Shown: positions 1,653 to 32,168 of the stretch, piece after piece
Numbering within the stretch: position 1 is the first letter of the stretch
Layout: every line of letters begins with the position of its first letter
Assembly (NCBI GenBank): GCA_043771335.1
Contig: JAYVHM010000015.1
Coordinates: forward strand, 1-37,199
Source of the DNA: a bacterium
GTDB taxonomy: Bacteria; Patescibacteriota; Minisyncoccia; Phycocordibacterales; UBA5272
DNA length: 37,199 bases
Direction of reading: 5' to 3'
Made by a program: the position numbers and the translations under genes
The notes under the pieces: generated by a model
Database searches by the model: none
What the model was told of the DNA's origin: nothing
The model's input: only the letters and a program-made list of their open reading frames with translations

Positions 1653-1712
1653 TTGACAAAATATTCTATACATGCTATTCTTTAGAAGTTAGTTCTTTAC
1701 AATAAATTGGAG
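1653..1712 (+). promoter_or_regulatory. Sigma70 promoter, boxA-like leader motif and SD of accessory gene
   Basis: TTGACA 1653-1658, 17 bp spacer, TGcTATTCT (-10 at 1676-1681), AAGTTAGTTCTTT 1686-1698, GGAG 1709-1712. Confidence 0.7.
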
Positions 1713-1718
1713 TTATAT

Positions 1719-2324
1719 ATGTACATATCCTTACTAGATAATTGGTTAGATCTTCTTTTGATTGTTTGTGTTGCCATATCTGCAGCACTATTAATCTCGA
1801 AGGGAATGAAATCAAAAACTTACTTTACTGTGTTTTCTGTAACCCTAATTTCCTATCTGATTGTGTTTTGTTTTTCAAACACGATCAGCTCTTCTGGAAA
1901 AGAGTTCGCTGTTTATCTTTCAGATGAGCATTTGGATGAAGTTGTATTACAAGAAAAACCTGGTAGATATTGGGGTCTCTACAATGCAACTTACTTTTCA
2001 AAAGAAGAGTTTAAGTTCTGTAAGAAGAGTACTCGTTACCCTGATCCTAGACGTGCTGAGGAAACTTTTAAACCATATAAGCTTAAGAGTTGTCACTCAT
2101 TTTATTTTGATACAAAATTTATTGATAGCAAAAACATTCTTGGCAGTCTGGGTGTACTTAAAAGTGGTTATTTCTCTCCAGAACCATTAACTTCTTCAAA
2201 TTTATTTGCATATGAAAATAGCAAAGAAAAACTTTATTCGAATTACCATCACAATGGTTATGGTAGTACATATATTAAATTTAAGGAGACTGAATACGTA
2301 AAAGAGCTAATAGAAAAACCTTAA
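1719..2324 (+). CDS. Hypothetical membrane protein (two N-terminal hydrophobic segments)
   Basis: Open ORF; ATG 1719 is 6 nt after GGAG; no recognisable family motif. Confidence 0.7.
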   Translation: MYISLLDNWLDLLLIVCVAISAALLISKGMKSKTYFTVFSVTLISYLIVFCFSNTISSSGKEFAVYLSDEHLDEVVLQEKPGRYWGLYNATYFSKEEFKFCKKSTRYPDPRRAEETFKPYKLKSCHSFYFDTKFIDSKNILGSLGVLKSGYFSPEPLTSSNLFAYENSKEKLYSNYHHNGYGSTYIKFKETEYVKELIEKP

Positions 2325-2340
2325 GTAAAAACTAAAAGCT

Positions 2341-2376
2341 AACAGCTCGCAAATTTTGTGGGCTGTTTTTATTTTT
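2341..2376 (+). terminator. Intrinsic terminator
   Basis: AACAGCTCGCAA-att-TTGTGGGCTGTT stem (G-U pairs) followed by T-tract. Confidence 0.8.
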
Positions 2377-2494
2377 CTAGATCTCATTATATTTTTAATT
2401 ACTTCTTTATTGTTAAAATTTGTAGTATAATACTAATTAGAAATAATAATTTTAAAATAAATTTATTTATAAATAAAAGCAAAAAATAAAATAT

Positions 2495-3049
2495 ATGTAT
2501 ACATTTAATAACTTTGACGAAGAGATAAAAGGTGCGATGGAGAGACTGGCAACAGAAATGAAAAGCATACAAACAGGACGTGCTACACCGATGGTGCTCG
2601 ACAATGTATACATTGATGCATATGGATCTAAAATGCAAATCAGTCATGTGGCTAGCATAGGATTAGAAGATTCTAAAACATTACTCGTAACTCCATATGA
2701 TAAGAGTGTGATGAAGGATTTAGAGCAGGGTATTAACGATGCCAATCTCGGATTATCTGTAGCTGCAGGCAGTGAAGGTCTTCGCGTTATATTCCCTATG
2801 TTAACTACTGAGCGCCGCAGTCAATATGTAAAAATAGTTAAGGATCAATTAGAAGACGCCAGAATAAAAATCAGAGGCATACGTGAAGACGCAAAAAAAG
2901 AAATAGAAAATAAAGCAAAAGATGGACAATACGGAGAAGATGATAAAAAAAGATTTTTAGATACATTACAAGCAAAAGTAGATAAAGCAAATGGCGATGC
3001 TGAGCAAGCTTTTAAAAGCAAAGAGTCAGAAATAATGGGAGATAATTAA
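2495..3049 (+). CDS. frr: Ribosome recycling factor
   Basis: IQTGRATP, AYGS and PMLTTERR motifs; typical 184-aa length. Confidence 0.95.
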   Translation: MYTFNNFDEEIKGAMERLATEMKSIQTGRATPMVLDNVYIDAYGSKMQISHVASIGLEDSKTLLVTPYDKSVMKDLEQGINDANLGLSVAAGSEGLRVIFPMLTTERRSQYVKIVKDQLEDARIKIRGIREDAKKEIENKAKDGQYGEDDKKRFLDTLQAKVDKANGDAEQAFKSKESEIMGDN

Positions 3050-3076
3050 TTAATTTTTAACTATTTATATAATCTC

Positions 3077-4177
3077 ATGCTCACCACTACATTTTTATTC
3101 CTAGCAGTTCTGGTTACTCTCGTTATGATACATGAGTTCGGTCACTATGTTGCTGCAAAAATTACAGGAATGCGCGTAGAAGAATTTGCTTTTGGTTTCC
3201 CTCCGAGATTATTTTCTAAGAAAATAGGAGAGACAGAATACAGTATAAACATGTTGCCTATAGGTGGTTATGTAAAGATAACTGGTGAGAGTTTTGATGA
3301 AGCAGAAAGAGAAAAAAATAAAAATGATAAAAAAGCTTTTCAGAATAAAAATAGATTAGCTCAATTTTTTGTATTATCAGCTGGAATTATTATGAACTTA
3401 GTTTTAGCTTTTGCTATCTTTACTTTTACCAATGTCGGAGAGAAATATATAAGAGCAGATGATATAAATTATTCCTCATATGTTAAAAATCCTAAAATTA
3501 TAGTTACTAGCGTATCACCTAATTCACCCAGTAAGACAGCAGGTATAACCTCGGGCGATGAGGTTTTAGAATTTAGAGCCGGTAATGATGTGGCTGACCT
3601 AAAAAGTGTAGCGAGTGTGATTGATCTGGTAAGGAGAAACAATGAAGCTGACATAAAAATCATTTTCAAAAAAGAAAATGGAGAAGTTGTTACCAGCACA
3701 GTGAGGGCAGTATTTGGAGTAACTCCTGATAGAAAAAGCATAGGAATGGGCGTAATGTATGCAGAAAAAGTAAATCTATCTTTTTTAGATAGTGTTAAAA
3801 AAGCTTTTTCTGATACAGGATATTATACAGTTGAAACTGTTAAGAGTTATTATAATTTATTTTCAAAATTATTTACCGGGAACAACGTATTGTCTTCACT
3901 TAGTGGTCCAGTAGGAATAGCAAAAGCAGTCGGTAATGCTAGCCAAAGTGGCTTAGATGATTTTCTCTCATTTGTGGCACTGCTGTCTATTAACTTAGCA
4001 GTATTTAATGCATTGCCATTACCTGCTCTTGATGGTGGTAGAATATTATTTGTTATTTATGAATCGTTAACAAGGAAGAAGATTAGTATGAATTTTCAAT
4101 ATTATGCTAACCTTATCGGTTTTCTATTTTTGATCGGACTCATGATTACTGTTACTTTTTTTGATATATTCAAATAA
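3077..4177 (+). CDS. rseP: Site-2 intramembrane metalloprotease (M50B) with PDZ domain
   Basis: HEFGH zinc motif, FGFPP, PIGGYVKI, NALPLPALDGG. Confidence 0.93.
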   Translation: MLTTTFLFLAVLVTLVMIHEFGHYVAAKITGMRVEEFAFGFPPRLFSKKIGETEYSINMLPIGGYVKITGESFDEAEREKNKNDKKAFQNKNRLAQFFVLSAGIIMNLVLAFAIFTFTNVGEKYIRADDINYSSYVKNPKIIVTSVSPNSPSKTAGITSGDEVLEFRAGNDVADLKSVASVIDLVRRNNEADIKIIFKKENGEVVTSTVRAVFGVTPDRKSIGMGVMYAEKVNLSFLDSVKKAFSDTGYYTVETVKSYYNLFSKLFTGNNVLSSLSGPVGIAKAVGNASQSGLDDFLSFVALLSINLAVFNALPLPALDGGRILFVIYESLTRKKISMNFQYYANLIGFLFLIGLMITVTFFDIFK

Positions 4178-4205
4178 TTTTTCTGTGTATAAGTGGTGTT
4201 TCTAT

Positions 4206-4311
4206 TTGCTTAAATTCAGTATTTTTGATATAATCTATGCACATTAGATTAAAAGATTTATTTTTTATTCTGGTGTGATATCGCTCTTTTAATAGTTATA
4301 ATTTTAAGGAG
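4206..4311 (+). promoter_or_regulatory. Sigma70 promoter, boxA-like motif and SD
   Basis: TTGCTT 4206-4211, 17 bp, TGaTATAAT 4229-4234; CGCTCTTTTAA 4282-4292; AAGGAG 4306-4311. Confidence 0.6.
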
Positions 4312-4318
4312 AAGTCTA

Positions 4319-4591
4319 ATGAAAAAAAGTTTGGTCTTTGCCAGCATGATGCTGGCAGCACTTGCGGTATCTGCAGCAGCAGTAACACCCGGCCCAGAGC
4401 CAAATAAGCAAGTTACATTTGCTTTTGCAAAAGCCGACAATAGCCCAGCTGCGGTGTTGGTTGCAGTCGCCCCAAATGAAATTGCAGGGAATATGCAGTC
4501 ATCTGGATTCATGATCACCTCCAGTCAAGAAAGTGTGGCACCAAAAATGCTTGGCGATCATCACGCCACTTACTCAAAAGCGTCTGGATGA
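4319..4591 (+). CDS. Small hypothetical secreted protein
   Basis: Sec signal peptide MKKSLVFASMMLAALAVSAAA; strong SD; visibly more GC-rich than flanks. Confidence 0.7.
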   Translation: MKKSLVFASMMLAALAVSAAAVTPGPEPNKQVTFAFAKADNSPAAVLVAVAPNEIAGNMQSSGFMITSSQESVAPKMLGDHHATYSKASG

Positions 4592-4674
4592 GTCTAAGAT
4601 TGCAGACTCAAGAAATGCGCGTGAGCTACATCCGGAAGGTATTACAAAATTGTAAACCTGCTTGCCAACCCTAA
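4588..4674 (+). CDS. Putative 28-aa peptide MSLRLQTQEMRVSYIRKVLQNCKPACQP, or frameshifted C-terminus of the upstream gene
   Basis: ATGA overlap with upstream stop; ORF fills the gap exactly up to the terminator. Confidence 0.35.
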   Translation: MSLRLQTQEMRVSYIRKVLQNCKPACQP

Positions 4675-4723
4675 CCCCTTTGATAGAAATATTAATTTAT
4701 TTTTGTTAAGGGGGTTTTCTTTT
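4673..4723 (+). terminator. Intrinsic terminator with long imperfect stem
   Basis: AACCCCTTTGATAGAAAT ... ATTTTTGTTAAGGGGGTT followed by TTCTTTT. Confidence 0.7.
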
Positions 4724-4809
4724 ACTTAACTATTTTTAAAAATTATGCTATATTATATTTACAATAATTAATATCTACCTATAGTGCACAAGTAGTAAAG
4801 ATAAAAAAT

Positions 4810-5730
4810 ATGCAAAAAGAGGTTTCAAATAATAGATTCAGGGTTTTACTTTTTTATAAATACGTTACTATTAGTAATGCAAAAGAAATGATGGAGTTAC
4901 ACCGTGCAGTGTGTGAAGTGTTGGACTTGAAGGGTAGAATAATAATCGCCGAAGAGGGTATAAATGGCACTGTAGAGGGGACATTAGAAAATACAGAAAA
5001 GTATATCGCTTTTATAAGAAAAGACAAAAGATTTAAAAACATGGACATAAAAGAAAGTACTGGTAATGGTAATGCTTTTCCAAAACTATCAGTGCGCGTT
5101 AGAAATGAAATAGTAGGCACCAAATTCCCGTCACATATAGACCCAAGAAAGGGCACAGCACGTCACATACTCGCAGATGATTTGAATAAAATGTATAAGA
5201 ATAATGAAGACTTTGTAGTGGTGGACATGCGTAATGATTATGAGTTAGCTAGTGGGCAATTCAAAAATACTTTAGATATTGGCCTCAAAAACAGTCGTGA
5301 CCTAGTAAGTGATGAAGTCATGAATAAGCTGAGAATACACAAAGATAAAAAAATAGTTACAGTCTGCACTGGAGGAGTAAGATGTGAAAAGATGGCTGCC
5401 TACTTGGTAGATCAGGGCTTTACAAATGTAAATCAATTATATAATGGCATACACTCATACATGGAAAAGTTTCCAGGGGATGATTGGCTCGGCACTCTTT
5501 ATACTTTTGATCAACGTGTAACTATGCATTTTGGTGGTGAAAGAGAAATCATCGGTGAGTGTCTAGACTGCAAAAATAAAACAGAAGATTATTATGATAT
5601 ATATGAAGACTATAAAGATAAAAATGGTAATGATAGAAAAAAAGACACACATGTATTGCTTTGTGAGTCCTGTGCCTGTGTCCGCGGCGCCATAAAGCAT
5701 GCAAGTAGAAAAGAGGTTATTCTAGTTTAG
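4810..5730 (+). CDS. trhO: Rhodanese-domain tRNA U34 hydroxylase (UPF0176/TrhO family)
   Basis: LLFYKY, LKGRIIIAEEGINGT, DMRNDYE, CTGGVRCEK, FDQR. Confidence 0.88.
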   Translation: MQKEVSNNRFRVLLFYKYVTISNAKEMMELHRAVCEVLDLKGRIIIAEEGINGTVEGTLENTEKYIAFIRKDKRFKNMDIKESTGNGNAFPKLSVRVRNEIVGTKFPSHIDPRKGTARHILADDLNKMYKNNEDFVVVDMRNDYELASGQFKNTLDIGLKNSRDLVSDEVMNKLRIHKDKKIVTVCTGGVRCEKMAAYLVDQGFTNVNQLYNGIHSYMEKFPGDDWLGTLYTFDQRVTMHFGGEREIIGECLDCKNKTEDYYDIYEDYKDKNGNDRKKDTHVLLCESCACVRGAIKHASRKEVILV

Positions 5731-5820
5731 GGTTATATATTTTTCTATATAAAAATCATGTGTTCGAAAGTCTTGCTTTTTATCTTTATAAAATAGTATA
5801 ATGTATTTATAAATAAAATC

Positions 5821-6111
5821 ATGTCAACAAATAATATAAAAACTACTATACAAAAAAATCTAAAAGAGATATTGGTTCACGATGTCGAGGCTGCAGCTTT
5901 TCTTATAGTCGCTGTGTCATTAATTGCTAGTCTTACATCCTTTGCTATGGATAAGAATAAGGCTACTCAAAACTCTTCTGCAGATGTTCAGATGAGACAG
6001 ATATACAATCCTCAGACAGTAGAGATAATAGACCTTGATAATGATGGTTATAATGACATGATCATAACTCATCAAGATGGACATATAGAGCATTCTTATA
6101 GTAGGAATTAG
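5821..6111 (+). CDS. Small membrane-anchored protein with DxDxDG Ca-binding-like loop
   Basis: Single hydrophobic segment; C-terminal IIDLDNDGYNDMII. Confidence 0.65.
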   Translation: MSTNNIKTTIQKNLKEILVHDVEAAAFLIVAVSLIASLTSFAMDKNKATQNSSADVQMRQIYNPQTVEIIDLDNDGYNDMIITHQDGHIEHSYSRN

Positions 6112-6134
6112 TTTGAATCAAAAAATATTATTTT

Positions 6135-6170
6135 AAAATAAAAAATCCCCGAGCATAAGCGAAGGGATTT
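6135..6170 (-). terminator. Intrinsic terminator between convergent genes (T-tract on minus strand)
   Basis: AAATCCC...GGGATTT stem preceded on + by an A-tract. Confidence 0.65.
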
Positions 6171-6193
6171 GATTTAAATATTTTATATGGATT

Positions 6194-6844
6194 TTATCTT
6201 CCTGATGATACTAATCGCACAGCTTCTCTGCTTGCTTGTTCACAAGCTGGGAATAAATGGGAGAAGAATGGATATGCTTTTTCTTGCCCTAAAAATAGAC
6301 ATGCTTCACTATAAGCTTCTTCTTGACTGTCGCTAATATGGCATACATTTTCAATTGCTCTTGGGCCAGAGTCTCCTGTCCAAGCTTTTTCAAATGAGTC
6401 TCCTGAAAAAAGTCTGCGAATACTGCCAACAGAGGCTTTGCTGGGATCAACATCACCTAAAAGATTTCTAGCTAAGGCAAAGCAGTCTTTGTTAGATAGA
6501 TAAGTAAAAATCATAGCAGACATAATTCCACTAGTCATATAGCTGGATAAGGCAGGCATAATTGTGTCGCCATAAAGCAGTGCATCCCAAGAGGTAACAT
6601 CTTCTATTTTTACTTTTAGGCGGGCAGCACATATTTTTTCTCCATACTTTGCTAACCACTCATCATTTTTTGGATAATGTTTTAAAACATCTTCTGGTGT
6701 CATGTATACATCGTCTTGCAAATTGCAAGTTCTCATACCATCCATTTCATCAATCATAAGAGATTTGATAAAGTTTTTATGTGGATATCCATCAGGCTTA
6801 ACTAATACAAAAAGAGTTTGGACTTTTGACTTTTGATCTGTCAT
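6194..6844 (-). CDS. ndk: Nucleoside-diphosphate kinase family protein (enlarged)
   Basis: VLVKPDG, YMTSG, GSIRRLF, ENVCHISDS with catalytic His. Confidence 0.8.
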   Translation of the reverse strand: MTDQKSKVQTLFVLVKPDGYPHKNFIKSLMIDEMDGMRTCNLQDDVYMTPEDVLKHYPKNDEWLAKYGEKICAARLKVKIEDVTSWDALLYGDTIMPALSSYMTSGIMSAMIFTYLSNKDCFALARNLLGDVDPSKASVGSIRRLFSGDSFEKAWTGDSGPRAIENVCHISDSQEEAYSEACLFLGQEKAYPFFSHLFPACEQASREAVRLVSSGR

Positions 6845-6851
6845 TATGTTT

Positions 6852-6925
6852 CTCCAGTATAATTTACGGCAAAATTGCCAAAGAACTAACTTTTACATAC
6901 TATCATGTACCTATTTTTAATGCAA
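6852..6925 (-). promoter_or_regulatory. Sigma70 promoter, boxA-like motif, leader hairpin and SD of ndk
   Basis: TTGCAT 6925-6920, 17 bp, TGaTAGTAT 6902-6897, AAGTTAGTTCTTT 6892-6880, GGCAAttTTGCC, GGAG 6855-6852. Confidence 0.7.
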
Positions 6926-7008
6926 ACATATATTTTATATAATAAAAATCTATGTTATAATGTGTGTAAGAAAAAAATATTTCAATAAATAAATAAAAAA
7001 ACAATCAT

Positions 7009-8271
7009 ATGTTAGACATAAAATTCATAAGGGAGAACAAAGAGTTGGTCTCCTTGGCTGCAAAAAAGAAGAGAATTAATTTTAATGTTGAGGATCTTTT
7101 AAAAGTTGATGCACAGAGGATAGAGTTAATGCAAAAAGTAGAAGATGTAAAAGCAAAACAAAACAAAGCAAGTGAAGAAATAAGTAAAGCTAGTCCAGAG
7201 ATAAGAAGCATGTTAATAAAAGCCATGTCTGACCTTAAGTCTGACATAAAAAAAGATGAGGATAAATTAGACAAGGTTATGATATCTTGGCGTGACCTCA
7301 TGCTCAGTGTTCCAAATATTCCTGACATGAGTGTGCCTGACGGAGAGAGTGATGCAGATAATGTAGAAGTAAAAAGATGGGGAGACCCGACTGAGTTCAA
7401 CTTTGAACCAAAAGATCATGTAGAGATAATGACAAAGTTAAAAATGGTAGACTTTGAGCGTGGTGTGAAGGTTCATGGCTTTCGTGGTTACTTTTTAACT
7501 GGAGACGGTGTGCGCTTATCACTGGCGATATGGCAATACGCTATGGATTTTTGGAGCAAAAAAGGGTTCACTCCGGTTATACCGCCAGTTGTAGTGCGTA
7601 GAAATATTTTTATGGGCACAGGATATCTACCCCAAGGTGAAGATGATTTGTATAAGACTCAAGACGGTGAATACTTAGCCGGCACTGCAGAGGTTCCAAT
7701 CATGGGTATGCATGCAGATGAGTTATTAGAAAATCTTGAGACTAATCCTATAAAATACTTAGGATTCTCACCATGTTTTCGTCGTGAAGCTGGCAGTCAC
7801 AGTAAAGATGTGAAGGGTCTAATACGTGTTCAGGAGTTCTATAAATGGGAACAAGTAGTTCTGTGTGAAGCTAGTCATGCAAAGTCAGTAGAATTACATG
7901 AAGAGATAAATAGAAACACTGAGGAGTTTATAGAAAGTCTCGGCATACCATATCACACAGTAGTTAACTGTGGAGGTGATCTTGGTATGGGACAAGTTAA
8001 AAAGTATGACATAGAATTATGGGTACCAAAAGAAGAAAAATACAGAGAGATTTCTTCTGCTTCATATTTTCATGATTTTCAGACAAGGCGTTCTAATATA
8101 AAATATAAAAGTGCTGATGGGAAAAATAAATTTGCCCACTCACTTAACTGTACAGCGATACCAACACCACGTATATTAGTATCACTCATAGAAAATTATC
8201 AAAATGCTGACGGTAGTGTCACCATCCCAGAAGTATTACAAAAATATATGGGAAAGGAGATTATAAAATAA
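7009..8271 (+). CDS. serS: Seryl-tRNA synthetase
   Basis: MLDIKFIREN start, GTAEVP, CFRREAG, GLIRV, REISSAS, ENYQ. Confidence 0.97.
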   Translation: MLDIKFIRENKELVSLAAKKKRINFNVEDLLKVDAQRIELMQKVEDVKAKQNKASEEISKASPEIRSMLIKAMSDLKSDIKKDEDKLDKVMISWRDLMLSVPNIPDMSVPDGESDADNVEVKRWGDPTEFNFEPKDHVEIMTKLKMVDFERGVKVHGFRGYFLTGDGVRLSLAIWQYAMDFWSKKGFTPVIPPVVVRRNIFMGTGYLPQGEDDLYKTQDGEYLAGTAEVPIMGMHADELLENLETNPIKYLGFSPCFRREAGSHSKDVKGLIRVQEFYKWEQVVLCEASHAKSVELHEEINRNTEEFIESLGIPYHTVVNCGGDLGMGQVKKYDIELWVPKEEKYREISSASYFHDFQTRRSNIKYKSADGKNKFAHSLNCTAIPTPRILVSLIENYQNADGSVTIPEVLQKYMGKEIIK

Positions 8272-8278
8272 AATCAAG

Positions 8279-9206: not shown

Positions 9207-9260
9207 ATATTTCTCTTTTCCTTACCATGCTTTGTATGTTATAATTAAAAGTATAAAAAC

Positions 9261-9854: not shown

Positions 9855-9949
9855 TACATAAAATACCAAAGCAAATATTGGTTAAATATTTGACAAAAAG
9901 CTATATTTTGCTATATTTAAAATAAGAGAAATAAAAACAAGAACAAACT

Positions 9950-14198: not shown

Positions 14199-14251
14199 GT
14201 TATTTAAATGTTTTCTAATTTTTATGATATAATATATTATATAAAAATCAT

Positions 14252-19793: not shown

Positions 19794-19813
19794 GAAATTA
19801 TTTCCTGCAAAAC

Positions 19814-19854: not shown

Positions 19855-19922
19855 GAATATTTAAAAGTTTTTATACTTTATTTTTTTATAGATTTATGGT
19901 ATAAATAATATAAGAAACAAAT

Positions 19923-25854: not shown

Positions 25855-26532
25855 ATGAAAGAAAATACATATAAATTATTAGCTCAGAATACAGAAGGGG
25901 TAAATGGTGAGTTGGTCAGTCTAGTTAGCTGCGGTAATGCTGGTCAGGACCCATGTACGATAGACGACCTTGTGGGTCTTGCTGATAATCTTGGTAATTA
26001 CGTTATATCAGTTATTTTCCCAGCAGTATTTTTTATAGGATTACTTTTTACTATATATCCAATATTAAAAGACCCAACTAATCCTCAAAATCTAAAAGAT
26101 TCAAAAGGTAGGGGTATAAAACTGTTAATAGGTTCTGCTTTTATGCTTGGAGCATATCTATTAGTAAAAGCTGTTCTATCTTCTATCGGTGTTAAAAATC
26201 CTAATATAATAAAAGGAACAGTAGGTATGCAGGATTTTTTAGTGACTCATGCTCATGCAGCTGGTAGCACTTTTAGTAACCCATTAGATGATGTCAGTAT
26301 ACAGAATATAATACTCGGCATTGTGAATATTTTAACCTTTGCAGCATTTATTGGTATAGTTTTGGGATTAGTACGCGGAGTCATGCTTCTCATGCTTGGA
26401 CAGCAGAATCCTGAGTATATAAAGAAGGGTAAACAATGGATAATATACACCCTGTTAGTAGCTGCTATAGTCTTTGGAGCTGAGATGATATATAATATTA
26501 TTAATACTACAGTGACAGGCGTATTAAAATAA
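25855..26532 (+). CDS. TrbC/VirB2-like pilin, two tandem pilin units
   Basis: Two hydrophobic hairpins, each with a charged loop (PQNLKDSK; PEYIKKGK); N-terminal CG..PC pair; internal AHAA..NPL. Confidence 0.7.
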   Translation: MKENTYKLLAQNTEGVNGELVSLVSCGNAGQDPCTIDDLVGLADNLGNYVISVIFPAVFFIGLLFTIYPILKDPTNPQNLKDSKGRGIKLLIGSAFMLGAYLLVKAVLSSIGVKNPNIIKGTVGMQDFLVTHAHAAGSTFSNPLDDVSIQNIILGIVNILTFAAFIGIVLGLVRGVMLLMLGQQNPEYIKKGKQWIIYTLLVAAIVFGAEMIYNIINTTVTGVLK

Positions 26533-26556
26533 TTATTATTAAGAAATAAAATAGCC

Positions 26557-26856
26557 ATGTTAACAAATTTTACAGCCTTTATAAATAGCCTAATCACATT
26601 ACTTAGTGGAGGAGTTGCTACTCTTTTAATGACAGTCGCATTCATTGCTTTCCTGTGGTCTGTAATTAATTATATTTGGAAAAGGAGGAACGGTGATACT
26701 AATGGCTTAGAGCAAGCAAAAACTATACTTTTTAGTTCTGTTTTTGGTTTGTTTGTAATGGTTAGTGTGTGGGGATTAGTTAACTTTCTAGCAACTGGAT
26801 TACTCGGTGCTGATGCCACAAAAAAAACAGTAACAAAGCCACAGACAAAGTTTTAA
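26557..26856 (+). CDS. TrbC/VirB2-like pilin
   Basis: TM - GDTNGLEQAK - TM ending GLFVMVSVWGLVNF. Confidence 0.75.
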   Translation: MLTNFTAFINSLITLLSGGVATLLMTVAFIAFLWSVINYIWKRRNGDTNGLEQAKTILFSSVFGLFVMVSVWGLVNFLATGLLGADATKKTVTKPQTKF

Positions 26857-26878
26857 TAATTAAAAATAATATAAAAAT

Positions 26879-27307
26879 ATGTTAAATAATCTATCGTCAT
26901 TAATAGGGGGAGGAAAAAATATAGCAGTAGGTATAGCTGGTCTTTTATTCACTGTCGCATTTATTGCTTTTGTTTTGTCTGTAATTAATTTTATAGTTAA
27001 GAGAGCAAAAGGTGAAGCTAATGGCTTAGAGCAAGCTAGAAACATGTTATTTGGGGCGGTATTCGGATTATTCATAATGGTAGCAGTGTGGGGTATCACT
27101 AACTTTATAGCTGGGAATCTTGGTATAACTCTTGGGGGTTGTGCTTCAAAACCTAGTCCAATACCAGGTGTTGCAGTGCAAGACGGCTGTAATACTACTG
27201 GAGGTAATTCAAATACCAACACTACCAATAATACTAATGGTCCGATAGATCAAAATGAGATAGATAGGACAGGAGAGGACACTTCTATTATTAATGGTTT
27301 GTTCTAA
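26879..27307 (+). CDS. TrbC/VirB2-like pilin with Cys pair and N/T-rich tail
   Basis: GEANGLEQAR, GLFIMVAVWGITNF; close paralog of 26557-26856. Confidence 0.75.
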   Translation: MLNNLSSLIGGGKNIAVGIAGLLFTVAFIAFVLSVINFIVKRAKGEANGLEQARNMLFGAVFGLFIMVAVWGITNFIAGNLGITLGGCASKPSPIPGVAVQDGCNTTGGNSNTNTTNNTNGPIDQNEIDRTGEDTSIINGLF

Positions 27308-27330
27308 TAATAAAACTAATATAAAATAAT

Positions 27331-27630
27331 ATGCAATCACTTAAAACATTTGTAGATGGATGGACAGACTTTATAGGAACATCGATAGCTGGTCTCTTAT
27401 TAACAGCAGCAACAGCAGTATTTTTTTATGCAGTGGTAAGATTTATCTTAAAGAGATCAAGCGGTGATGCGAAGGGTCTAGAAGATGCAAAGAGTATGCT
27501 TGGCTGGTCCGTTATTGGCCTTACTGTAATGTTTTCTATTTGGGGTATAGTTTCTTTTTTGCAGACTGGTATACTTGGAACCAATAACAAAACTCAGATT
27601 GCAGCACCTAGCGTAAAATCAACTCCTTAA
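27331..27630 (+). CDS. TrbC/VirB2-like pilin
   Basis: GDAKGLEDAK, WSVIGLTVMFSIWGIVSF. Confidence 0.75.
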   Translation: MQSLKTFVDGWTDFIGTSIAGLLLTAATAVFFYAVVRFILKRSSGDAKGLEDAKSMLGWSVIGLTVMFSIWGIVSFLQTGILGTNNKTQIAAPSVKSTP

Positions 27631-27646
27631 TCCTTCATTAAGGAGT
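27622..27646. repeat. Perfect 10-bp inverted repeat over a pilin stop codon (possible terminator)
   Basis: ACTCCTTAAT-ccttc-ATTAAGGAGT; no T-tract. Confidence 0.55.
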
Positions 27647-27669
27647 CGAATATATTGTGCATAAACACA

Positions 27670-27698
27670 TTGCAAGCACACGCTTTAAATCATATAAT
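27670..27698 (+). promoter_or_regulatory. Sigma70 promoter of pilin 27788
   Basis: TTGCAA 27670-27675, 17 bp, TATAAT 27693-27698. Confidence 0.65.
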
Positions 27699-27787
27699 TA
27701 AAGTATATAAGATTTAAAACTTGTATTCATATTTAAAAAAGTATGAAAAGTTAATAGTAATTAAAATTTAAAAATAATAATAAAAAT

Positions 27788-28219
27788 ATGATAAAAAATT
27801 TAAACAGTTTTTTTAAAAAAGGAATCATAGCGGCATCAATGCTTGCTATTGCTGGTTCTGCTTATGCTCAAAACCTTAATGCTCCTATAATACCACCAAC
27901 CTCAGGAGGAAGTAATAGTAGTATTGGAGCCAGTCTACAAAATGTAGTAGCTGGATTTAAAAATATTTCAACAGGAGTATATAGTTCACTAATGGTTGTA
28001 GCTCTTATAGCTTTTTCTTTTGGGGTTATTAAAACTCTAATTTCAAGTAAGCCACAAGATAAGGCTGATGGTCTAAAATCTATAGGATTTGGTATTATTG
28101 CACTGTTTGCACTTGTGGGTGTGTGGGGATTAGTATCATTCCTTTCTGCTAACTTAGGTATTGGAGTTGGAGGTGATATACCAACACCAGGAGTGCCGAC
28201 AGGAGTTAGAACTTACTAA
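27788..28219 (+). CDS. TrbC/VirB2-like pilin with cleavable signal peptide
   Basis: Signal ending AYA-Q; FGIIALFALVGVWGLVSF; IPTPGVP tail. Confidence 0.78.
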   Translation: MIKNLNSFFKKGIIAASMLAIAGSAYAQNLNAPIIPPTSGGSNSSIGASLQNVVAGFKNISTGVYSSLMVVALIAFSFGVIKTLISSKPQDKADGLKSIGFGIIALFALVGVWGLVSFLSANLGIGVGGDIPTPGVPTGVRTY

Positions 28220-28256
28220 TTTTTATTAGTATAAGGATTTAAATAGTTTTTTAAAA

Positions 28257-28289
28257 ATACAAATAAATATTTTAAATATTTATTTGTAT
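28257..28289. repeat. Perfect 16-bp AT-rich inverted repeat with 1-nt spacer
   Basis: ATACAAATAAATATTT-t-AAATATTTATTTGTAT. Confidence 0.75.
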
Positions 28290-28302
28290 GAATTAAAAAA
28301 AT

Positions 28303-28605
28303 ATGAATAAAAATAACGTAACAGGCGTAGTGCAGAATGAAGCAGTGGCAAAAATACAAGATAAGATTTTAACAGAAATAGTTAGTCCGTTACTAGGTCT
28401 TGCTACTGCTGTTGCTTTTGTATTATTTTTATTTGGTATGGTTAGATTTTTAATAGCTAAGTCTAATGGAGAGAGTGAAAAGTTTGAGCAAGGGAAAAAG
28501 CATTTACTTTGGGGCATTGCCGGACTTTTTATTATGTTATCTATTTGGGGTATATTAATTATGATTGCTGGATTTACTGATTCTAACATTTGGTTCGCAA
28601 AGTAG
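28303..28605 (+). CDS. TrbC/VirB2-like pilin
   Basis: AFVLFLFGMVRF, EQGKKHLLWGIAGLFIMLSIWGI. Confidence 0.75.
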   Translation: MNKNNVTGVVQNEAVAKIQDKILTEIVSPLLGLATAVAFVLFLFGMVRFLIAKSNGESEKFEQGKKHLLWGIAGLFIMLSIWGILIMIAGFTDSNIWFAK

Positions 28606-30048: not shown

Positions 30049-31074
30049 ATGAAAATCGAAAATAATAATATAGGCTATAAGTCGGTGCTGTATGCGCTTG
30101 CTGGTAATTTTATAATTACTATTAGTAAGTTTATTGGTTTTGCTTTTACCGGCTCGGCAGCTCTTTTTGCCGAAGGTGTACACTCTTTTGCAGACACTGC
30201 TAATCAGTTCTTACTTTTCGTAGGTATAAAAAGATCAAAGAGAAAAGCGAGCGAAAGGTATAGATTTGGATTTGGACAAGAGAGATTCTTCTGGGCATTG
30301 ATTTCTGCTTGTGGTATATTTTTTGTGGGAGCTGGAGTAACTATTTATCATGGCATAAATGCTTTAATAAGTAAGGAAGTCTCTCACTTTTCTATATATG
30401 TAATATATTTACTTGTTATTGCGATATTAATAGAAGCATTTACTTTAAAGACAGCTTTGAGTGAATTGAATTTTTCTAAAAATAAAAATAAAAATAAAAA
30501 GAAGAGCTTAATAAAAATAATACAAGACGGTGATCCGACAACAGTCGCTGTGGTGTTAGAGGATAGTGTGGCTGTGCTTGGAAGCTCTGTCGCGCTCGTA
30601 GCTATATATCTTACACACATAACTCAAAATTATATATATGAGGCCTTAGCTTCGATTTTTATAGGAATGTTACTTGCTATTGTTTCTTTTGTTTTGATTT
30701 TTAAAAATTATGAATACTTGATAGGAAAGTCATTAAGCGAAGATATTTTAGAAAAAATAAAAGATAAACTAAACAAAGATCCAGCCGTAGAAAAAGTAAT
30801 AGACATTATGAGTAGTGCTGTGGATGTCGACAAGTATCACGTGGTCTGTGAAGTAGAGATTAATGGGGCAGCGCTAATAAGGAGAAGTATAGAAAATGGA
30901 GAATTACGTGATGATTTTGAAGATATAGAAAATAAATACAGTGATTTTGTAAAGTTCAGTCTAGACATGGCAGACAGAGTGCCGAGACTTATTGGGGCTC
31001 ATATAGATAAACTGGGAAAAGAAATACATGATGAATTCGAAGAGGTGGCTCAGGTAGACATAGAGATAAGGTAG
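30049..31074 (+). CDS. Cation diffusion facilitator (CDF) transporter
   Basis: GSAALFAEGVHSFADTANQ, FGFGQERFFW, VLEDS. Confidence 0.9.
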   Translation: MKIENNNIGYKSVLYALAGNFIITISKFIGFAFTGSAALFAEGVHSFADTANQFLLFVGIKRSKRKASERYRFGFGQERFFWALISACGIFFVGAGVTIYHGINALISKEVSHFSIYVIYLLVIAILIEAFTLKTALSELNFSKNKNKNKKKSLIKIIQDGDPTTVAVVLEDSVAVLGSSVALVAIYLTHITQNYIYEALASIFIGMLLAIVSFVLIFKNYEYLIGKSLSEDILEKIKDKLNKDPAVEKVIDIMSSAVDVDKYHVVCEVEINGAALIRRSIENGELRDDFEDIENKYSDFVKFSLDMADRVPRLIGAHIDKLGKEIHDEFEEVAQVDIEIR

Positions 31075-31126
31075 AGAGTTTGATTATTTTTAAAAAATAT
31101 AGTATAATACATGGAACAATAAATAT

Positions 31127-31282
31127 ATGTCACAAGATAGATTAATCAAAATAGTAAATAAAGCAACAGGTACAACTGTTTATACTACTAAAAATAAAAA
31201 ACAAGTAACTAGAAAAATAGAGCTTAAAAAATACGACAAAAAAACCAGAACAAGAGTTGTATTCAAAGAGTCTAAGAAATAA
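31127..31282 (+). CDS. rpmG: 50S ribosomal protein L33, Cys-free form (absent from ORF track)
   Basis: MSQDRLIKIVNKATGTTVYTTKNKKQVTRKIELKKYDKKTRTRVVFKESKK. Confidence 0.92.
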   Translation: MSQDRLIKIVNKATGTTVYTTKNKKQVTRKIELKKYDKKTRTRVVFKESKK

Positions 31283-31296
31283 TCAATTATTTCAAA

Positions 31297-31327
31297 TAAA
31301 AGCCGGTCGCTTCGCGACCGGCTTTTA
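31297..31327 (+). terminator. Intrinsic terminator
   Basis: TAAAAGCCGGTCGC-ttc-GCGACCGGCTTTTA. Confidence 0.88.
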
Positions 31328-31329
31328 AC

Positions 31330-31388
31330 TTGTATCTATTTACAAAAAATGCTAGTATAACCTTGGATTTAATTAACTATTTTAGGAG
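31330..31388 (+). promoter_or_regulatory. Sigma70 promoter and SD of accessory gene
   Basis: TTGTAT 31330-31335, 17 bp, TGcTAGTAT 31353-31358; AGGAG 31384-31388. Confidence 0.6.
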
Positions 31389-31394
31389 TTTTAA

Positions 31395-32111
31395 ATGAAA
31401 CAAGTTGCCACTAATCTTCTTTCCGAAGAATCTGCACATAAAAATATACAAGACCTAAACGAAGAAGCGAGGGTTATATTAACAGAAAATAAACGCATCC
31501 CTTATACTTTAAAGTTTAAATTTGCTTTATCAAAAGATAATCGTGACATAATTTTAGAGCCTATAGATGCTGTTATTATTAATTCAGTACATGATGAAGA
31601 TCTTCAAAAACTTTATACTTCACAACATATTTTTTTTGAGGGCAGGCCAGCAACAGCCAGAGCCAGAGAATGTTTTTCAAGTAAGATGAAGAAAAGTATT
31701 AGTTTTTCTCATATGTTTGATTTGTTGGGAGATTCTTATGATGCTAAGAAGTCGCTTAAGATGCAGATAGTGGATGAGCTTAATAAAAAATTTGCTAACA
31801 AATTATCTTTTCAGCTCAAAGCCGAAGTGGATAATTATGGCAGTCGTGACTTTATGGATTTATTTTTTGGAAGAGAACACTTTCCTCTGAAGGTTGTTTC
31901 TAAAAGTGAGTCAAAATTCATCACTGCTCCTCACTTAGTCAATGCCAGCTCAATATTCTTTTTCTATTCAGATGTGAATAGAAACAAGCTTAATCAAATA
32001 TACAAAAAGATTAAAGCTTTAAAAGAGTATTTAGTTTTAATTGAAGAAAAGACAAAAGTTGAAAACTTATTAAATGCAAAGGTAACAGAAGTAAGAGCCA
32101 TCAAAATATAA
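31395..32111 (+). CDS. Hypothetical protein
   Basis: 238-aa ORF with SD, promoter and terminator; no recognised motif; coiled-coil-like C-terminus. Confidence 0.75.
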   Translation: MKQVATNLLSEESAHKNIQDLNEEARVILTENKRIPYTLKFKFALSKDNRDIILEPIDAVIINSVHDEDLQKLYTSQHIFFEGRPATARARECFSSKMKKSISFSHMFDLLGDSYDAKKSLKMQIVDELNKKFANKLSFQLKAEVDNYGSRDFMDLFFGREHFPLKVVSKSESKFITAPHLVNASSIFFFYSDVNRNKLNQIYKKIKALKEYLVLIEEKTKVENLLNAKVTEVRAIKI

Positions 32112-32136
32112 CACTTAATATTATTAATAATTAAGT

Positions 32137-32168
32137 AAAGCCAGCAAATATCGCTGGCTTTTATTTTT
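32137..32168 (+). terminator. Intrinsic terminator
   Basis: AAAGCCAGC-aaatatc-GCTGGCTTT followed by T-tract. Confidence 0.85.

Follow-up and report, generated by a model that had tools for sequence, protein, structure and literature searches.

The window analyzed here is the whole of a 37,199-nt stretch of DNA (contig C15) from a CPR/Patescibacteria-type genome of 650 kb (G000; 95.5% complete). Six solitary genes lie where the initial annotation had placed them. All of them have promoter-like boxes, a purine motif that precedes the ATG by 6–8 nt, and a hairpin resembling a terminator. The features of these cassettes, and one example of a core gene start, are as follows.

1653–2367, + strand: cassette 1; TTGACA at 1653–1658, 17 nt, TG-TATTCT at 1676–1681; GGAG at 1709–1712, spacer 6; terminator at 2341–2367
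1691–1702, + strand: boxA-like string of cassette 1, AGTTCTTTACAA
1719–2324, + strand: orphan CDS of cassette 1, 201 aa, N-terminal hydrophobic segment
4282–4716, + strand: cassette 2; AAGGAG at 4306–4311, spacer 7; long hairpin terminator at 4673–4716
4282–4292, + strand: half-motif of cassette 2, CGCTCTTTTAA
4319–4591, + strand: CDS of cassette 2, 90 aa, signal-peptide-like N-terminus
6147–6926, − strand: cassette 3; TTTGCA at 6926–6921, 18 nt, TG-n-TAGTAT at 6902–6897; GGAG at 6855–6852, spacer 7; terminator at 6164–6147
6886–6875, − strand: boxA-like string of cassette 3, GTTCTTTGGCAA, matching the order's rrn boxA at 11/12 positions and overlapping a small hairpin, GGCAATTTTGCC
6844–6194, − strand: NDK-like CDS of cassette 3, 216 aa (PF00334, 48.7 bits)
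17010–17813, − strand: cassette 4; TTGACT-17-TAGTAT at 17813–17785; AAGGAA at 17743–17738, spacer 6; bidirectional terminator at 17039–17010
17772–17756, − strand: leader hairpin and T-run of cassette 4, terminator-like
17752–17746, − strand: GATCTTT of cassette 4
17731–17057, − strand: orphan CDS of cassette 4, 224 aa
19351–19847, + strand: cassette 5; TTGACA-17-TATACT at 19351–19379; leader of roughly 75 nt; AAGGAA at 19447–19452, spacer 8; terminator at 19814–19847
19461–19793, + strand: orphan CDS of cassette 5, 110 aa
31350–32161, + strand: cassette 6; extended −10 TGCTAGTAT at 31350–31358, poor −35; GGAG at 31385–31388, spacer 6; terminator at 32137–32161
31395–32111, + strand: orphan CDS of cassette 6, 238 aa
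17842–17866, + strand: core start, read directly from the sequence; TG-n-TATAAT ending 6 nt before the ATG of a GH18/PG-binding gene (17864), predicted leaderless mRNA

The Shine-Dalgarno (SD) motif had been described as GGAG or AAGGA; a purine motif was present in all six cassettes, but in two of them (17731 and 19461) it is AAGGAA rather than GGAG. Promoters of the form −35/17 bp/−10 were likewise recognizable, except that the ndk spacer is 18 nt and the boxes of 4319 and 31395 are less canonical. The promoter of cassette 2 is ambiguous, as the one proposed by the tool (GTGATA-16-TATAAT, 4275–4302) would start transcription inside the SD. Cassette 6 is insulated upstream by a strong terminator (31297–31327). 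The four reported boxA-like strings were found in place (1691–1702, 4282–4292, 6887–6875, and 17753–17742).

Pfam searches with the CDSs of cassettes 1, 2, 4, 5, and 6 returned no match. No orthologs of the six genes were found in relatives G010, G013, and G028; 1719 had no homolog in these genomes, nor 31395 in three relatives. The NDK-like protein had six matches, itself included, among 5.8 billion proteins, and a paralog 41% identical to it lies at C1:103569–104336. The cassette 4 protein had four matches in 1.84 billion representatives, and that of cassette 6 only itself among 5.8 billion proteins, with atlas scores at noise level. The six genes are not syntenically conserved across the lineage, and the 1719 cassette, found in one of five genomes compared at the site, is a clean presence/absence polymorphism: it is inserted between holB-like and frr, which lie 28 nt apart at the empty site of the closest relative, G011, and G010 lacks the 1719 gene, its mreB, holB-like, frr, and rseP following one another consecutively. 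G011 has inherited cassettes 4319, ndk, and 19461, each at its corresponding locus. Cassette 2 is retained there and partly in G007, its GGAG kept in all three genomes while the mature protein diverges (dN/dS 0.33). The ndk leader is almost identical in G011 (gene dN/dS 0.13), and cassette 5 keeps its promoter and AAGGAAA with the start changed from ATG to GTG and a spacer 3 nt shorter. A tandem paralog (16560–17018) adjoins cassette 4; G011 has one copy only.

The flanking genes had been described as lacking an SD and, among the 42 window gene starts listed, GGAG, AGGA, or AAGGAA indeed occurred at the six cassette genes only. Start contexts of genes are A-rich with T at −1 and G absent. In G000, 64 genes have an extended −10 located exactly 6 nt upstream of the ATG, whereas any other distance between 5 and 20 nt accounts for 1–11 genes; in three relatives, 39, 19, and 20 genes have it at 6 nt. 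The solute-binding protein gene at 24460 has the same layout as 17864, with the extended −10 6 nt before its ATG. Judged by sequence, the core genes have predicted leaderless mRNAs or A-rich leaders and no SD. The 3′ tail of the host's own 16S rRNA is GGAUUAAUUCCAAA (consensus GGAUcACCUCCUUu) and lacks CCUCC, as do all tails examined (CCTCC in 0/14: its own and those of 13 relatives, 5 from the genus, 2 from the family, and 6 from other families). Loss of the CCUCC anti-SD is order-wide and hence old, and SD-less core initiation fits it. This bears out the proposal that the rest of the genome initiates without SD.

Genome-wide, canonical AAGGAG 6–8 nt before the start was found in 61/653 genes (~9%, about one in eleven), and the six cassettes are members of this one class, whose expression grammar is unlike that of core genes, as had been suggested. 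Gene calls came from a simple custom caller; about 5–6 GGAG matches among the 61 are expected by chance, and one call is 19 aa long. With one candidate per gene, namely the ORF's first ATG, a GGAG stood at a spacer of 5–9 nt in 57/653 genes against ~5 expected from positions 21–56 upstream, with a spacer of exactly 6 nt in 34 of the 57; AAGGAG occurred before 32 starts (0.7 expected). The predicted leaders are ~40–70 nt long (median −10 to ATG distance, 59.5 nt), the median upstream intergenic region is 137 nt vs 75.5 nt, and 40/61 class genes have their own terminator vs 127/592 others (p = 4e-12); positions 1–20000 of the window hold 16 terminator-like sites vs 8.8 ± 3.3 in shuffles. The promoter boxes did not prove distinctive of the class: the extended −10 occurs in both classes, and the −35 is only slightly better in the GGAG class (at least 4/6 matches in 42% vs 25%, p = 0.027). 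GC content is 34.3% vs 34.1% for the host and GC3 is also host-like, and one same-genus relative has 40% GC; the codon log-likelihood per aa is 0.154 vs 0.234 (p = 1e-14). About 10 of 62 class proteins scanned matched Pfam: two NDKs, Tmk, DHFR, HD, an AAA_33 kinase, PDT, Clp_N, a Tad4 domain, a weak HTH, and a STAND-like NTPase. The class probably consists of monocistronic, leadered accessory genes, most with an extended −10 promoter of their own, between the conserved operons of a reduced CPR genome.

Comparison with relatives showed that the class is lineage-specific and fast-evolving. Homologs in G010, G013, or G028 (any blastp match, E ≤ 1e-5) were found for 4/61 GGAG genes vs 432/592 others (p = 3e-25), with a single reciprocal best hit in total. 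The difference persisted among genes with gaps of at least 100 nt and lengths of 100–300 aa (2/30 vs 68/115, p = 8.5e-8), and within each relative the conserved fractions of GGAG-led and other genes were 5/25 vs 384/485, 8/24 vs 370/473, and 6/32 vs 314/503. The relative sequence compared was 520 kb for G010, 535 kb for G013, and 270 kb for G011, each of roughly 600 kb. In this 270 kb of G011, GGAG stands at the same spacing in 12 of 13 likely orthologs, three with otherwise unalignable leaders; four further weak or paralogous matches (28–41% identity) were left out. Median dN/dS was 0.22 for the class (12 pairs, range 0.13–0.33) vs 0.067 for 191 pairs. Four-fold-site divergence was modestly lower in the class (0.31 vs 0.42, p = 0.024), with no excess of very low values (2/12 vs 12/189, p = 0.2); the PDT gene at C6:3510 is 99% identical between G000 and G011 (dS 0.02). 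Retention of GGAG in 12/13 orthologs together with a dN/dS of 0.22 shows that selection acts on the genes as well as on the motif: class members genuinely encode proteins, on which purifying selection is present but relaxed, and GGAG itself is kept by selection.

Duplex energies to the host's 16S tail were −4.7 for GGAG leaders, compared with −1.7 in other genes and a range of −2.7 to −3.0 in shuffled sequence. Canonical AAGGAG remains the motif across the four genomes whatever the sequence of the 16S tail, and tail-complementary variants were not enriched (GGAAT in G000, 3 vs 1.6; TGAA and GAAT in G013, 14 vs 20.2 and 20 vs 16.1; GGAAG in G028, 2 vs 3.4). Selected UUCC pairing would favor GGAA(UU) over GGAG, yet G000 has 32 AAGGAG and 13 AAGGAA. 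In G013, whose tail carries UUCA, duplexes of the tail with GGAG-class leaders are no stronger than those with shuffles (−3.6 vs −3.25, p = 0.95), yet AAGGAG is still enriched (5 vs 0.5); residual pairing is therefore not the whole story. Within this genus, GGAG could plausibly pair weakly with UUCC.

The boxA-like strings had been taken to point to a possible Nus-controlled regulon. In such a regulon GNTCTTT would recruit NusB-NusE (S10), and the cassettes would be co-regulated through antitermination or occlusion of the nearby ribosome-binding site. A genuine, conserved rrn boxA exists in the order (consensus GTTCTTTGACAA; 8/8 full-length loci have a single match in the 330 nt preceding 16S), with an identical copy, GTTCGTTGACAA, at C7:72024, apparently before 23S, and both NusB, whose presence had been singled out for checking, and NusA are encoded. 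Of the 61 GGAG leaders, 11 contain GNTCTTT, a number that none of 300 dinucleotide shuffles attained (1.6 ± 1.3); with the window genes excluded, the count is 8/57 vs 1.5; the 7-nt half-motif G[CT]TC[AT]TT occurs in 17/61 vs 1.4, its variable fifth position being the variable position of rrn boxAs. Unconserved genes are preceded by SD and by GNTCTTT far more often than core genes or shuffles are, so that, as with synteny, the outcome is the opposite of what was to refute the initial proposal. In roughly one quarter of the class GNTCTTT is a genuine leader element, identical to the 5′ half of the rrn boxA in this lineage. However, a Nus regulon is improbable and is not a class property: only 2/61 leaders match the boxA 12-mer within 2 mismatches, 44/61 lack the half-motif, which elsewhere lies anywhere from 1 to 24 nt from GGAG, what follows the 7-mer is by eye mostly T/A-rich rather than GACAA, and sites 4282 and 17753 match the order's boxA at 8/12 positions only. 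Genome-wide, boxA matches numbered 87 against ~122 expected (Markov), or 9 vs 6.4 at ≤1 mismatch. Rho, which suhB-type Nus control needs in E. coli, was not found in the 95.5%-complete genome. In favor of such a regulon, the 17731 leader has its terminator-like hairpin just before GATCTTT. Nus control is a plausible reading in two cases only: for ndk, whose GTTCTTTGGCAA stands 10 nt after its −10 (9 nt for rrn boxA) and is conserved in G011 as GCTCTTTGGCGA, and for 1719, with GTTCTTT-ACAA (a gapped fit) likewise 10 nt after the −10. That the class stems from spurious ORF calls or start choices that happen to follow GGAG is most improbable; the caller was custom-made, PWM-based start refinement assigned ndk and 17731 to ATGs other than their true SD starts, and the 19-aa call and ~5 chance matches are included, but the first-ATG excess with its 34 spacers of exactly 6 nt, ortholog dN/dS below 0.34, terminators after 40/61, and leaders conserved in relatives all speak against it.

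Horizontal trade of these units, also proposed initially, is unproven: GC is host-like, no donors or relatives outside the clade, including viral contigs, and no insertion scars at the cassettes were found, and three cassettes are shared with G011 by inheritance. If the genes were recent imports from SD-using donors, their promoters, SDs, and terminators could be un-eroded signals useless in the host, in keeping with a canonical AAGGAG irrespective of the recipient's tail, lineage specificity, atypical codon usage, the 1719 polymorphism, and the near-identical PDT pair. This reading is already disfavored and improbable, given GGAG and spacing kept in 12/13 orthologs at four-fold-site divergence ~0.3, a GGAG kept in three species at 4319, dN/dS of 0.13–0.33, host-like GC and GC3 despite the 40% GC relative, such a class in all four genomes despite the old anti-SD loss, and no donor found. 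Unlikely too, but less so, and compatible with the preferred reading because it concerns origin, is that the class would be a reservoir of single-gene phage or mobile-element units domesticated singly between host operons. A promoter, one gene, and a terminator between conserved genes is the architecture of morons in the lambdoid-phage literature, and the cassettes resemble these; the few annotatable members have typical phage auxiliary functions (DHFR then thymidylate kinase at C3:19043–20313, two NDKs, an HD phosphohydrolase, a polynucleotide-kinase-like AAA_33, and a protein at C5:18267–19115 with a Tad4, or Thoeris inhibitor, domain at E = 1e-25), and tmk, DHFR, HD, and pnk matched PHROG families. 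Nucleotide-kinase PHROG matches are, however, not phage-specific, no integrase, att-like repeats, or prophage context was visible at the window cassettes, three of them had no close relative on 2.9 million viral contigs by a method that finds close relatives only, and phages of these hosts would meet the same anti-SD-less ribosomes.

The best explanation of the whole, to which we assign a probability of about 0.6, would be a GGAG-led accessory class in a genome whose core is SD-less and which has lost its anti-SD. GGAG would serve as the ribosome-binding signal of long-leader mRNAs, most likely acting in this genus by residual 4-bp pairing with UUCC in the degenerate 16S tail, at about −4.7 kcal/mol. 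Accessory genes would thereby start translation by a route of their own, distinct from that of the leaderless core. More tentatively, gene flow may keep supplying the class with moron-like single-gene units (from phage or other CPR), which are then inherited vertically within sub-clades. In this tiny uncultured bacterium, whose 16S tail lacks the anti-SD, about one gene in eleven nevertheless has a textbook ribosome-binding site, nearly always on a fast-evolving, lineage-specific stand-alone unit.

Gene calling in the genome under study (G000; 650,432 bases in 16 contigs, 95.5% complete, GC about 33%) was performed with a simple, home-made caller based on codon log-odds and greedy non-overlap, yielding 653 genes and a coding fraction of 87–89%. 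The start context was rich in A between −11 and −2, carried T at −1, and contained hardly any G. Among the 323 genes without GGAG and with at least 60 nt of upstream sequence, 43 had an extended −10 box (TGnTAnnWT) that ended exactly 6 nt ahead of the ATG, and every other distance to 44 nt accounted for 0–7 genes; with the final starts, the box stood at exactly 6 nt in 64 genes (other distances of 5–20 nt: 1–11 genes), and in 39, 19, and 20 genes of three relatives. This arrangement is predicted to be the signature of leaderless mRNAs.

GGAG was found 5–9 nt before the first ATG in 57 genes, compared with approximately 5 expected, with 34 cases at exactly 6 nt; this count uses the first ATG of each ORF and is therefore independent of the start model. 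Keeping the first ATG wherever GGAG preceded it gave a final class of 61 genes, which includes one 19-aa call and about 5–6 members expected by chance. The other 592 of the 653 genes have no GGAG at this spacing and share an A-rich consensus with T at −1; together with the altered 16S tail described below, this bears out the initial annotation, which had proposed that the genome otherwise initiates translation without a Shine-Dalgarno (SD) motif. Class genes showed a longer upstream intergenic region than the others (median 137 vs 75.5 nt), a median distance of 59.5 nt between the best −10 box and the ATG, and a hairpin resembling a terminator after the gene in 40/61 cases vs 127/592 (p=4e-12; 40/56 vs 127/356 for genes with at least 40 nt downstream). 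Structure in their leaders slightly exceeded that of controls (z −0.71 vs −0.24, p=0.022), and no significant strand bias was observed for the class (31/55 vs 245/566, p=0.066). A distinct promoter class was rejected, as the −35 of class genes is only slightly better than that of leaderless genes.

The 37.2-kb window, which is contig C15, has a housekeeping content (mreB, frr, rseP, serS, clpB, ychF, dnaJ, gyrA, a proS-like gene, and an rpsM-rpoA-rplQ block), among which six solitary genes had been described as self-contained cassettes, each with a −35 and a −10 box 17 bp apart, an SD-like motif, and its own terminator. The layout was recovered for 6/6 at the positions reported, with promoter-like boxes, a purine motif 6–8 nt ahead of the ATG, and a hairpin of terminator type, so that each single gene is enclosed by its own promoter and terminator; several details of motif and promoter required correction, as listed here.

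Single-gene cassettes of the window, named by start
1719: cassette between a holB-like gene and frr
4319: promoter ambiguous
6844 (−): ndk; promoter spacer of 18 nt
17731 (−): motif AAGGAA, not GGAG
19461: motif AAGGAA, not GGAG
31395: extended −10 box with a poor −35

Among 42 starts in the window, GGAG, AGGA, or AAGGAA occurs at these six alone, as had been claimed for the flanking genes; the remaining starts lie in A/T-rich sequence, and many of them have a TATAAT-like box no more than 25 nt from the ATG. The neighbors of the cassettes are mreB, frr, rseP, serS, clpB, ychF, dnaJ, and rpsM, with no prophage setting.

Elsewhere in the window, five of six consecutive small genes (25855-28605), following a solute-binding protein gene, matched T4SS_pilin (PF18895), with only two reaching the cut-off; this run is syntenic in G010 (same genus) and G013 (same family) and partly in G028 (another family). 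A 51-aa ORF (31127-31282) directly before a strong terminator (31297-31327) is kept in G010 (75%) and G013 (62%). A GC-rich hairpin followed by a T-run (GGCGCC-NNNN-GGCGCC or GCCGCGC-TTCG-GCGCGGC) is present at positions 1-20 of the window and at many contig termini (ends of C2, C4, C6, C9, C11, and C14); these hairpins look like a repeated family of strong terminators at which the assembly probably breaks.

To place the class among its relatives, G010, G013, and G028 were fetched almost whole (520, 535, and 594 kb, respectively). A blastp match (E≤1e-5) in any of the three was obtained for 4/61 class genes vs 432/592 others (p=3e-25), and the class yielded one reciprocal best hit in total. 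The difference persisted among genes with an upstream gap of at least 100 nt and a length of 100–300 aa (2/30 vs 68/115, p=8.5e-8). The four members with homologs, all distant matches, are two NDK-like proteins, Tmk, and an HD protein. The proposal that the six window genes belong to one genome-wide class of accessory nature is thus upheld. GGAG accompanied 4/436 conserved genes and 57/217 homolog-less genes; many accessory genes are written in the core grammar, including the photolyase, CDF transporter, and 2-hydroxyacid dehydrogenase genes of the window. These three (12642-14198, 30049-31074, and 8310-9206, respectively) have no GGAG, are tightly coupled to the gene upstream, with the photolyase start overlapping the clpB end by 14 nt, and have no reciprocal-best-hit ortholog; the dehydrogenase gave one weak 26% match in G028. 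Within each relative, too, GGAG-led genes had homologs less often than other genes (5/25 vs 384/485, 8/24 vs 370/473, and 6/32 vs 314/503). GC values were spread broadly across the order and also inside the genus (G000, 33.3%; the closest relative G011, partial, 32.7%; G010, 39.9%; G013, 40.9%; G028, 47.6%); when G000 was compared with G010, G013, and G028, the GGAG class was approximately three times larger in the AT-richest genome.

At the level of single loci, G010, G013, and G028 yielded no reciprocal best hit for any of the six cassettes, consistent with the lack of synteny anticipated for them, and ndk alone gave weak matches (29–30%). The closest relative found, G011, shows ~83% DNA identity and is collinear with the window. 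Where the window has 769 nt at the 1719 site, G011 has 28 nt; the cassette starts directly after the holB-like stop and stops before the frr promoter, and comparison with G011 revealed no target duplication and no terminal repeats. It is missing at the same site in G011, G010, G013, and G028, and in G010 mreB, the holB-like gene, frr, and rseP follow one another directly. G011 also lacks the 2-hydroxyacid dehydrogenase gene, as a clean indel, and the tandem paralogous orphans 16560-17018 and 17057-17731 (−) correspond to a single G011 gene that matches both copies. Near-identical AT-rich bidirectional terminators (AATAGC[CT]ACAAAATATA...TTTTGT[GA]GCTATT) follow both tandem genes (16518-16554 and 17010-17039). 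G011 does carry the 4319, ndk, and 19461 cassettes, and part of 4319 occurs in the further relative G007. In these three cassettes, conservation is higher in promoters and leaders than in the coding sequence, and GGAG or AAGGAA is kept, at the 4319 cassette GGAG in three species.

Analysis of the 270 kb fetched from G011 showed tblastn matches for 17/61 class genes and 236/592 others, with median protein identities of 70.7% and 87.1%, respectively. GGAG and its spacing were kept in 12 of 13 likely orthologs, three of which have leaders that are otherwise unalignable, and the sole exception reads GGAAG; orthology was assigned by judgement, with four weak or paralogous matches (28–41% identity) set aside. 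The dN/dS of the class was 0.13–0.33 (median 0.22, 12 pairs), compared with 0.067 for the others (191 pairs). The class therefore consists of real genes that evolve about three times faster than the rest and in which GGAG is constrained.

The 16S rRNA gene is split between the end of contig C2 and the start of C7, and its tail was read from an Rfam alignment of C7:1-216 that reached the last model position. The tail is GGAUUAAUUCCAAA, where the Rfam consensus has GGAUcACCUCCUUu, and the predicted mature 3′ end is ...AUUCCAAA; inspection of the anti-SD, which the initial annotation had advised, thus revealed a tail without CCUCC. Thirty relatives were searched, of which 17 gave a 16S match and 13 a readable 3′ tail. 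Tails of the same genus (n=5) read GGATTAATTCC, those of the same family (n=2) GGATTAATTCA, and those from six other families were of the GGAAT[CTA][ATC]TTC[AC] type. CCTCC was found in 0/14 tails (G000 and 13 relatives across the order), which makes anti-SD loss an old, order-wide trait; anti-SD loss as such is already known. The only pairing that the G000 tail allows with the motif is GGAG:UUCC (3 Watson-Crick pairs and 1 G-U).

Several further features of the ribosomal loci were observed. The 16S gene (C2:14418-15957 into C7:1-216) has reached only ~E. coli position 1400 after 1540 nt and probably carries an insertion; the 16S locus of the further relative G021 spans 2228 nt. The 16S and 23S genes appear to be transcribed separately and to lie far apart, at about 72 kb on C7. 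A GGAG-class ORF (C7:652-1137, 162 aa) occupies the usual 16S-23S spacer position ~430 nt downstream of the 16S 3′ end, and immediately before the 16S promoter come four further GGAG-class orphans (C2:12048-14162).

How GGAG could be read without CCUCC was evaluated in the four genomes together. The enriched motif was canonical AAGGAG in each (observed/expected: G000, 32/0.7; G010, 6/0.4; G013, 5/0.5; G028, 12/1.6), words complementary to the genome's own tail were unenriched in all four, and an unbiased k-mer scan in the relatives was dominated by −10-box words; a variant SD that co-evolved with the tail was accordingly rejected. The predicted duplex energy between class leaders and their own tail was −4.7 kcal/mol in G000, −4.4 in G010, −8.15 in G028, and −3.6 in G013, better than shuffles in the first three and equal to them in G013 (p=0.95); with a canonical tail, −8.7 to −11.5 kcal/mol would be expected (G000 median, −4.7 vs −8.7). 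Since the class duplexes of G000 and G010 beat shuffles, a weak residual GGAG:UUCC pairing in this genus is plausible, and in G000 it would set the class apart from the other genes (−4.7 vs −1.7). Such pairing accounts neither for G013 nor for the preference for G over A at the fourth position. Masking of the anti-SD by bS21 was discarded, as bS21 was not found and the anti-SD sequence itself is altered, and CsrA as a reader of GGA was discarded with no CsrA found in the genome. A four-domain S1 protein is encoded. The leader motif GNTCTTT, considered as a cis anti-SD that sequesters the SD, was likewise rejected as a class property: GGAG was predicted to be more paired than the remaining leader (0.34 vs 0.51 unpaired), its unpaired fraction was no lower than with a shuffled upstream leader (0.337 vs 0.346, p=0.88; extreme in 3/61 vs 3.9 expected), and 5/16 motif instances showed substantial pairing with AAGGAG.

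A bolder reading, which we consider unlikely, at somewhat under one chance in ten, holds that the order uses two initiation channels, with the core genes initiating independently of the tail (leaderless or A-rich) and AAGGAG read by something other than the tail, namely a protein or RNA adaptor or, more radically, ribosomes with CCUCC. A non-tail reader would explain why the motif is canonical whatever the tail sequence, why GGAG is kept by selection, and why AAGGAG persists in G013, whose tail is unable to pair. In the radical version, the CCUCC ribosomes would be those of the bacterial host cell to which the presumed episymbionts attach, and the cassettes, whose promoter, SD, and terminator are of the universal bacterial kind, would be host-directed genes, comparable to T-DNA genes, which carry plant signals; the phage-type anti-defence domain (Tad4) encoded in the class would fit such a role.

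Elements of the boxA/Nus-factor type are known from rrn operons, lambda nut sites, and E. coli suhB, and boxA-like motifs had been noted in four of the window leaders. The rrn boxA of G000 (GTTCGTTGACAA) is located upstream of the 16S gene, 9 nt after its extended −10 box, and one match (≤3 mismatches) was present upstream of 8/8 full-length 16S loci, with GTTCTTTGACAA as the order consensus.

Identical copies of the boxA GTTCGTTGACAA
C2:14269-14280: before the 16S gene
C7:72024-72035: near a 23S-like contig end, apparently before the 23S gene

The ndk leader contains GTTCTTTGGCAA, which matches the rrn boxA at 11/12 positions, lies 10 nt after a plausible −10 box, overlaps a small hairpin, and is kept in G011. 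The 1719 leader carries GTTCTTT-ACAA (11/12 with one gap), also 10 nt after a plausible −10 box, and the 4319 leader carries GCTCTTTTAA, possibly 11 nt after a plausible −10 box; −10 assignment elsewhere is ambiguous in AT-rich DNA. Genes for the Nus system were confirmed in part, with a NusB domain at C3:100607-101008 (E=1.5e-31) and NusA at C14:15135-15593; Rho was not found in the genome. Across the class, the full 12-mer within 2 mismatches occurred in 2/61 leaders, and genome-wide matches did not exceed expectation (87 vs ~122), so that a Nus regulon as a property of the class, one of the suggestions of the initial annotation, was not sustained. The 5′ half of the element was enriched: GNTCTTT occurred in 11/61 class leaders vs 1.6 ± 1.3 in shuffles (8/57 once the window genes are left out), and the pattern G[CT]TC[AT]TT, defined post hoc, in 17/61 vs 1.4 and in 13/46 vs 4/295 non-class upstream regions. 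The 7-nt half motif is located 1–24 nt before GGAG. The lineage thus resembles known boxA systems in the rrn boxA of the order, the near-copies in the ndk and 1719 leaders, and the enriched 5′ half, and differs in that 59/61 class leaders have no full element and no Rho was found. Nus factors may act on ndk and 1719; for the class such a role is unproven.

A Pfam scan of 62 proteins (56 class members outside the window and the six window cassettes) returned matches for approximately 10.

Domain matches among members of the class
Two genes: NDK (Pfam)
C3:19043-19660: DHFR (Pfam)
C3:19657-20313: thymidylate kinase, directly after DHFR (Pfam)
C6:3510-4400: prephenate dehydratase (Pfam)
C12:24014-24688: HD_4 protein (Pfam)
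Further members: AAA_33 kinase; Clp_N protein; weak HTH; STAND-like NTPase (Pfam)
C5:18267-19115 (−): 282-aa protein whose C-terminal domain is Tad4 (Type I Thoeris inhibitor; Pfam, E=1e-25)

The Tad4-domain protein is 93% identical in G011; such a phage-type anti-defence domain is unexpected in the 650-kb genome of a presumed episymbiont. PHROG families were matched by tmk, DHFR, HD, and pnk, and the class content resembles, by analogy, phage auxiliary or moron genes. Phage morons are single extra genes with their own promoter and intrinsic terminator, inserted among conserved genes inside prophages; they vary between close relatives, and their function is often unknown or auxiliary. The cassettes share with them the promoter and terminator around a single, variable gene, and differ in lying between housekeeping operons of a 650-kb chromosome.

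Database searches returned no relatives beyond the clade, and for the orphans almost none anywhere. Viral contigs held no close relatives of three window cassettes; the 31395 protein matched only itself (Atlas look-up scores ≤0.80, the noise level), the NDK-like protein gave 6 matches including itself, the 17731 protein gave 4, and the prephenate dehydratase had one near-identical MAG contig. The two NDK-like genes are the only paralog pair within the class. GC was host-like (34.3% for the class vs 34.1% for the host; GC3, 27.0 vs 26.1%), and no repeats or donor were detected; codon usage alone was atypical (codon log-likelihood per aa, 0.154 vs 0.234). Presence at conserved loci was patchy, with 1719 absent in the relatives and the tandem pair single in G011, yet 4319, ndk, and 19461 are shared with G011. 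The suggestion that these are horizontally traded single-gene cassettes therefore agrees with the presence/absence of 1719 and is otherwise unproven, given the lack of donor or scars and the host-like GC. Divergence at four-fold sites was modestly lower in the class (0.31 vs 0.42, p=0.024), with no significant excess of very low values (2/12 vs 12/189), so that recent exchange of class genes is only hinted at.

Dual gene-start architectures and anti-SD loss have both already been described. The published account in PMC10783764 reports tails without CCUCC and few SD genes (2–7% ‘SD’ genes) in four CPR lineages (Campbellbacteria, Wolfebacteria, Peregrinibacteria, and SR1), and variant tails are described there and in PMC6107228 as common to related species. 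G000 agrees with these surveys in its tail without CCUCC, in the absence of SD from most genes, and in a variant tail common to its relatives, here the whole order; in the surveys, as far as these accounts go, the few percent of SD-like genes are treated as residue, whereas in G000 they form a sharply defined class that is almost exclusively lineage-specific and under selection. Bacterial leaderless transcription combined with RBS-led genes, for which dual gene-start models are used, is the ‘group C’ of GeneMarkS-2 (PMC6028130). As group C is characterized in that paper, G000 shares its Pribnow box at a fixed short distance before first operon genes and a second, leadered SD-type population; the constant, short spacing between −10 box and start is present, and an SD-type RBS on the remaining genes is not (592/653 without GGAG). 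Operon-internal and leadered core genes of G000 are instead A-rich and SD-less, as described for group B, and SD is confined to orphan monocistrons while the anti-SD is gone. In Bacteroidetes, initiation is reported to be SD-independent with an intact anti-SD masked by ribosomal proteins including bS21 (PMC7797042), and the SD-led exception described is rpsU, a conserved ribosomal-protein gene under autoregulation (PMC10783764). By these descriptions, G000 is similar in the A-rich, Kozak-like start context of nearly all genes and in the very small strong-SD set; it differs in its altered anti-SD sequence, in that no bS21 was found, and in having orphans as its SD-led genes. Our literature search found no report of residual canonical SD sites that, in anti-SD-less organisms, are confined to self-contained, lineage-specific genes and maintained by selection. 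What is added here comprises the tails across the order, the absence of covariation between motif and tail, tests for selection, a boxA reference from the lineage itself, and the functional flavour of the class.

Taken as a whole, both the class and its accessory nature are confirmed. As an SD motif, GGAG shows enrichment at a constrained spacing and conservation in orthologs, with no complementarity of the CCUCC type to the genome's own 16S tail; an SD-type function of the motif is predicted. Anti-SD loss and SD-free initiation tend to be described per genome, as all-or-nothing traits. Here, an entire CPR order lacks CCUCC, yet each genome examined retains a small textbook-SD set, which coincides almost perfectly with fast-evolving, lineage-specific genes. 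This grammar is a cheap sequence marker for the CPR flexible genome, and gene finders with one start model will mis-set starts, as a single-model PWM refinement did here at ndk and 17731. If GGAG is truly used, the question is what recognizes a canonical SD without a canonical anti-SD, and accessory genes could be controlled apart from core genes at the level of translation, in minimal cells.
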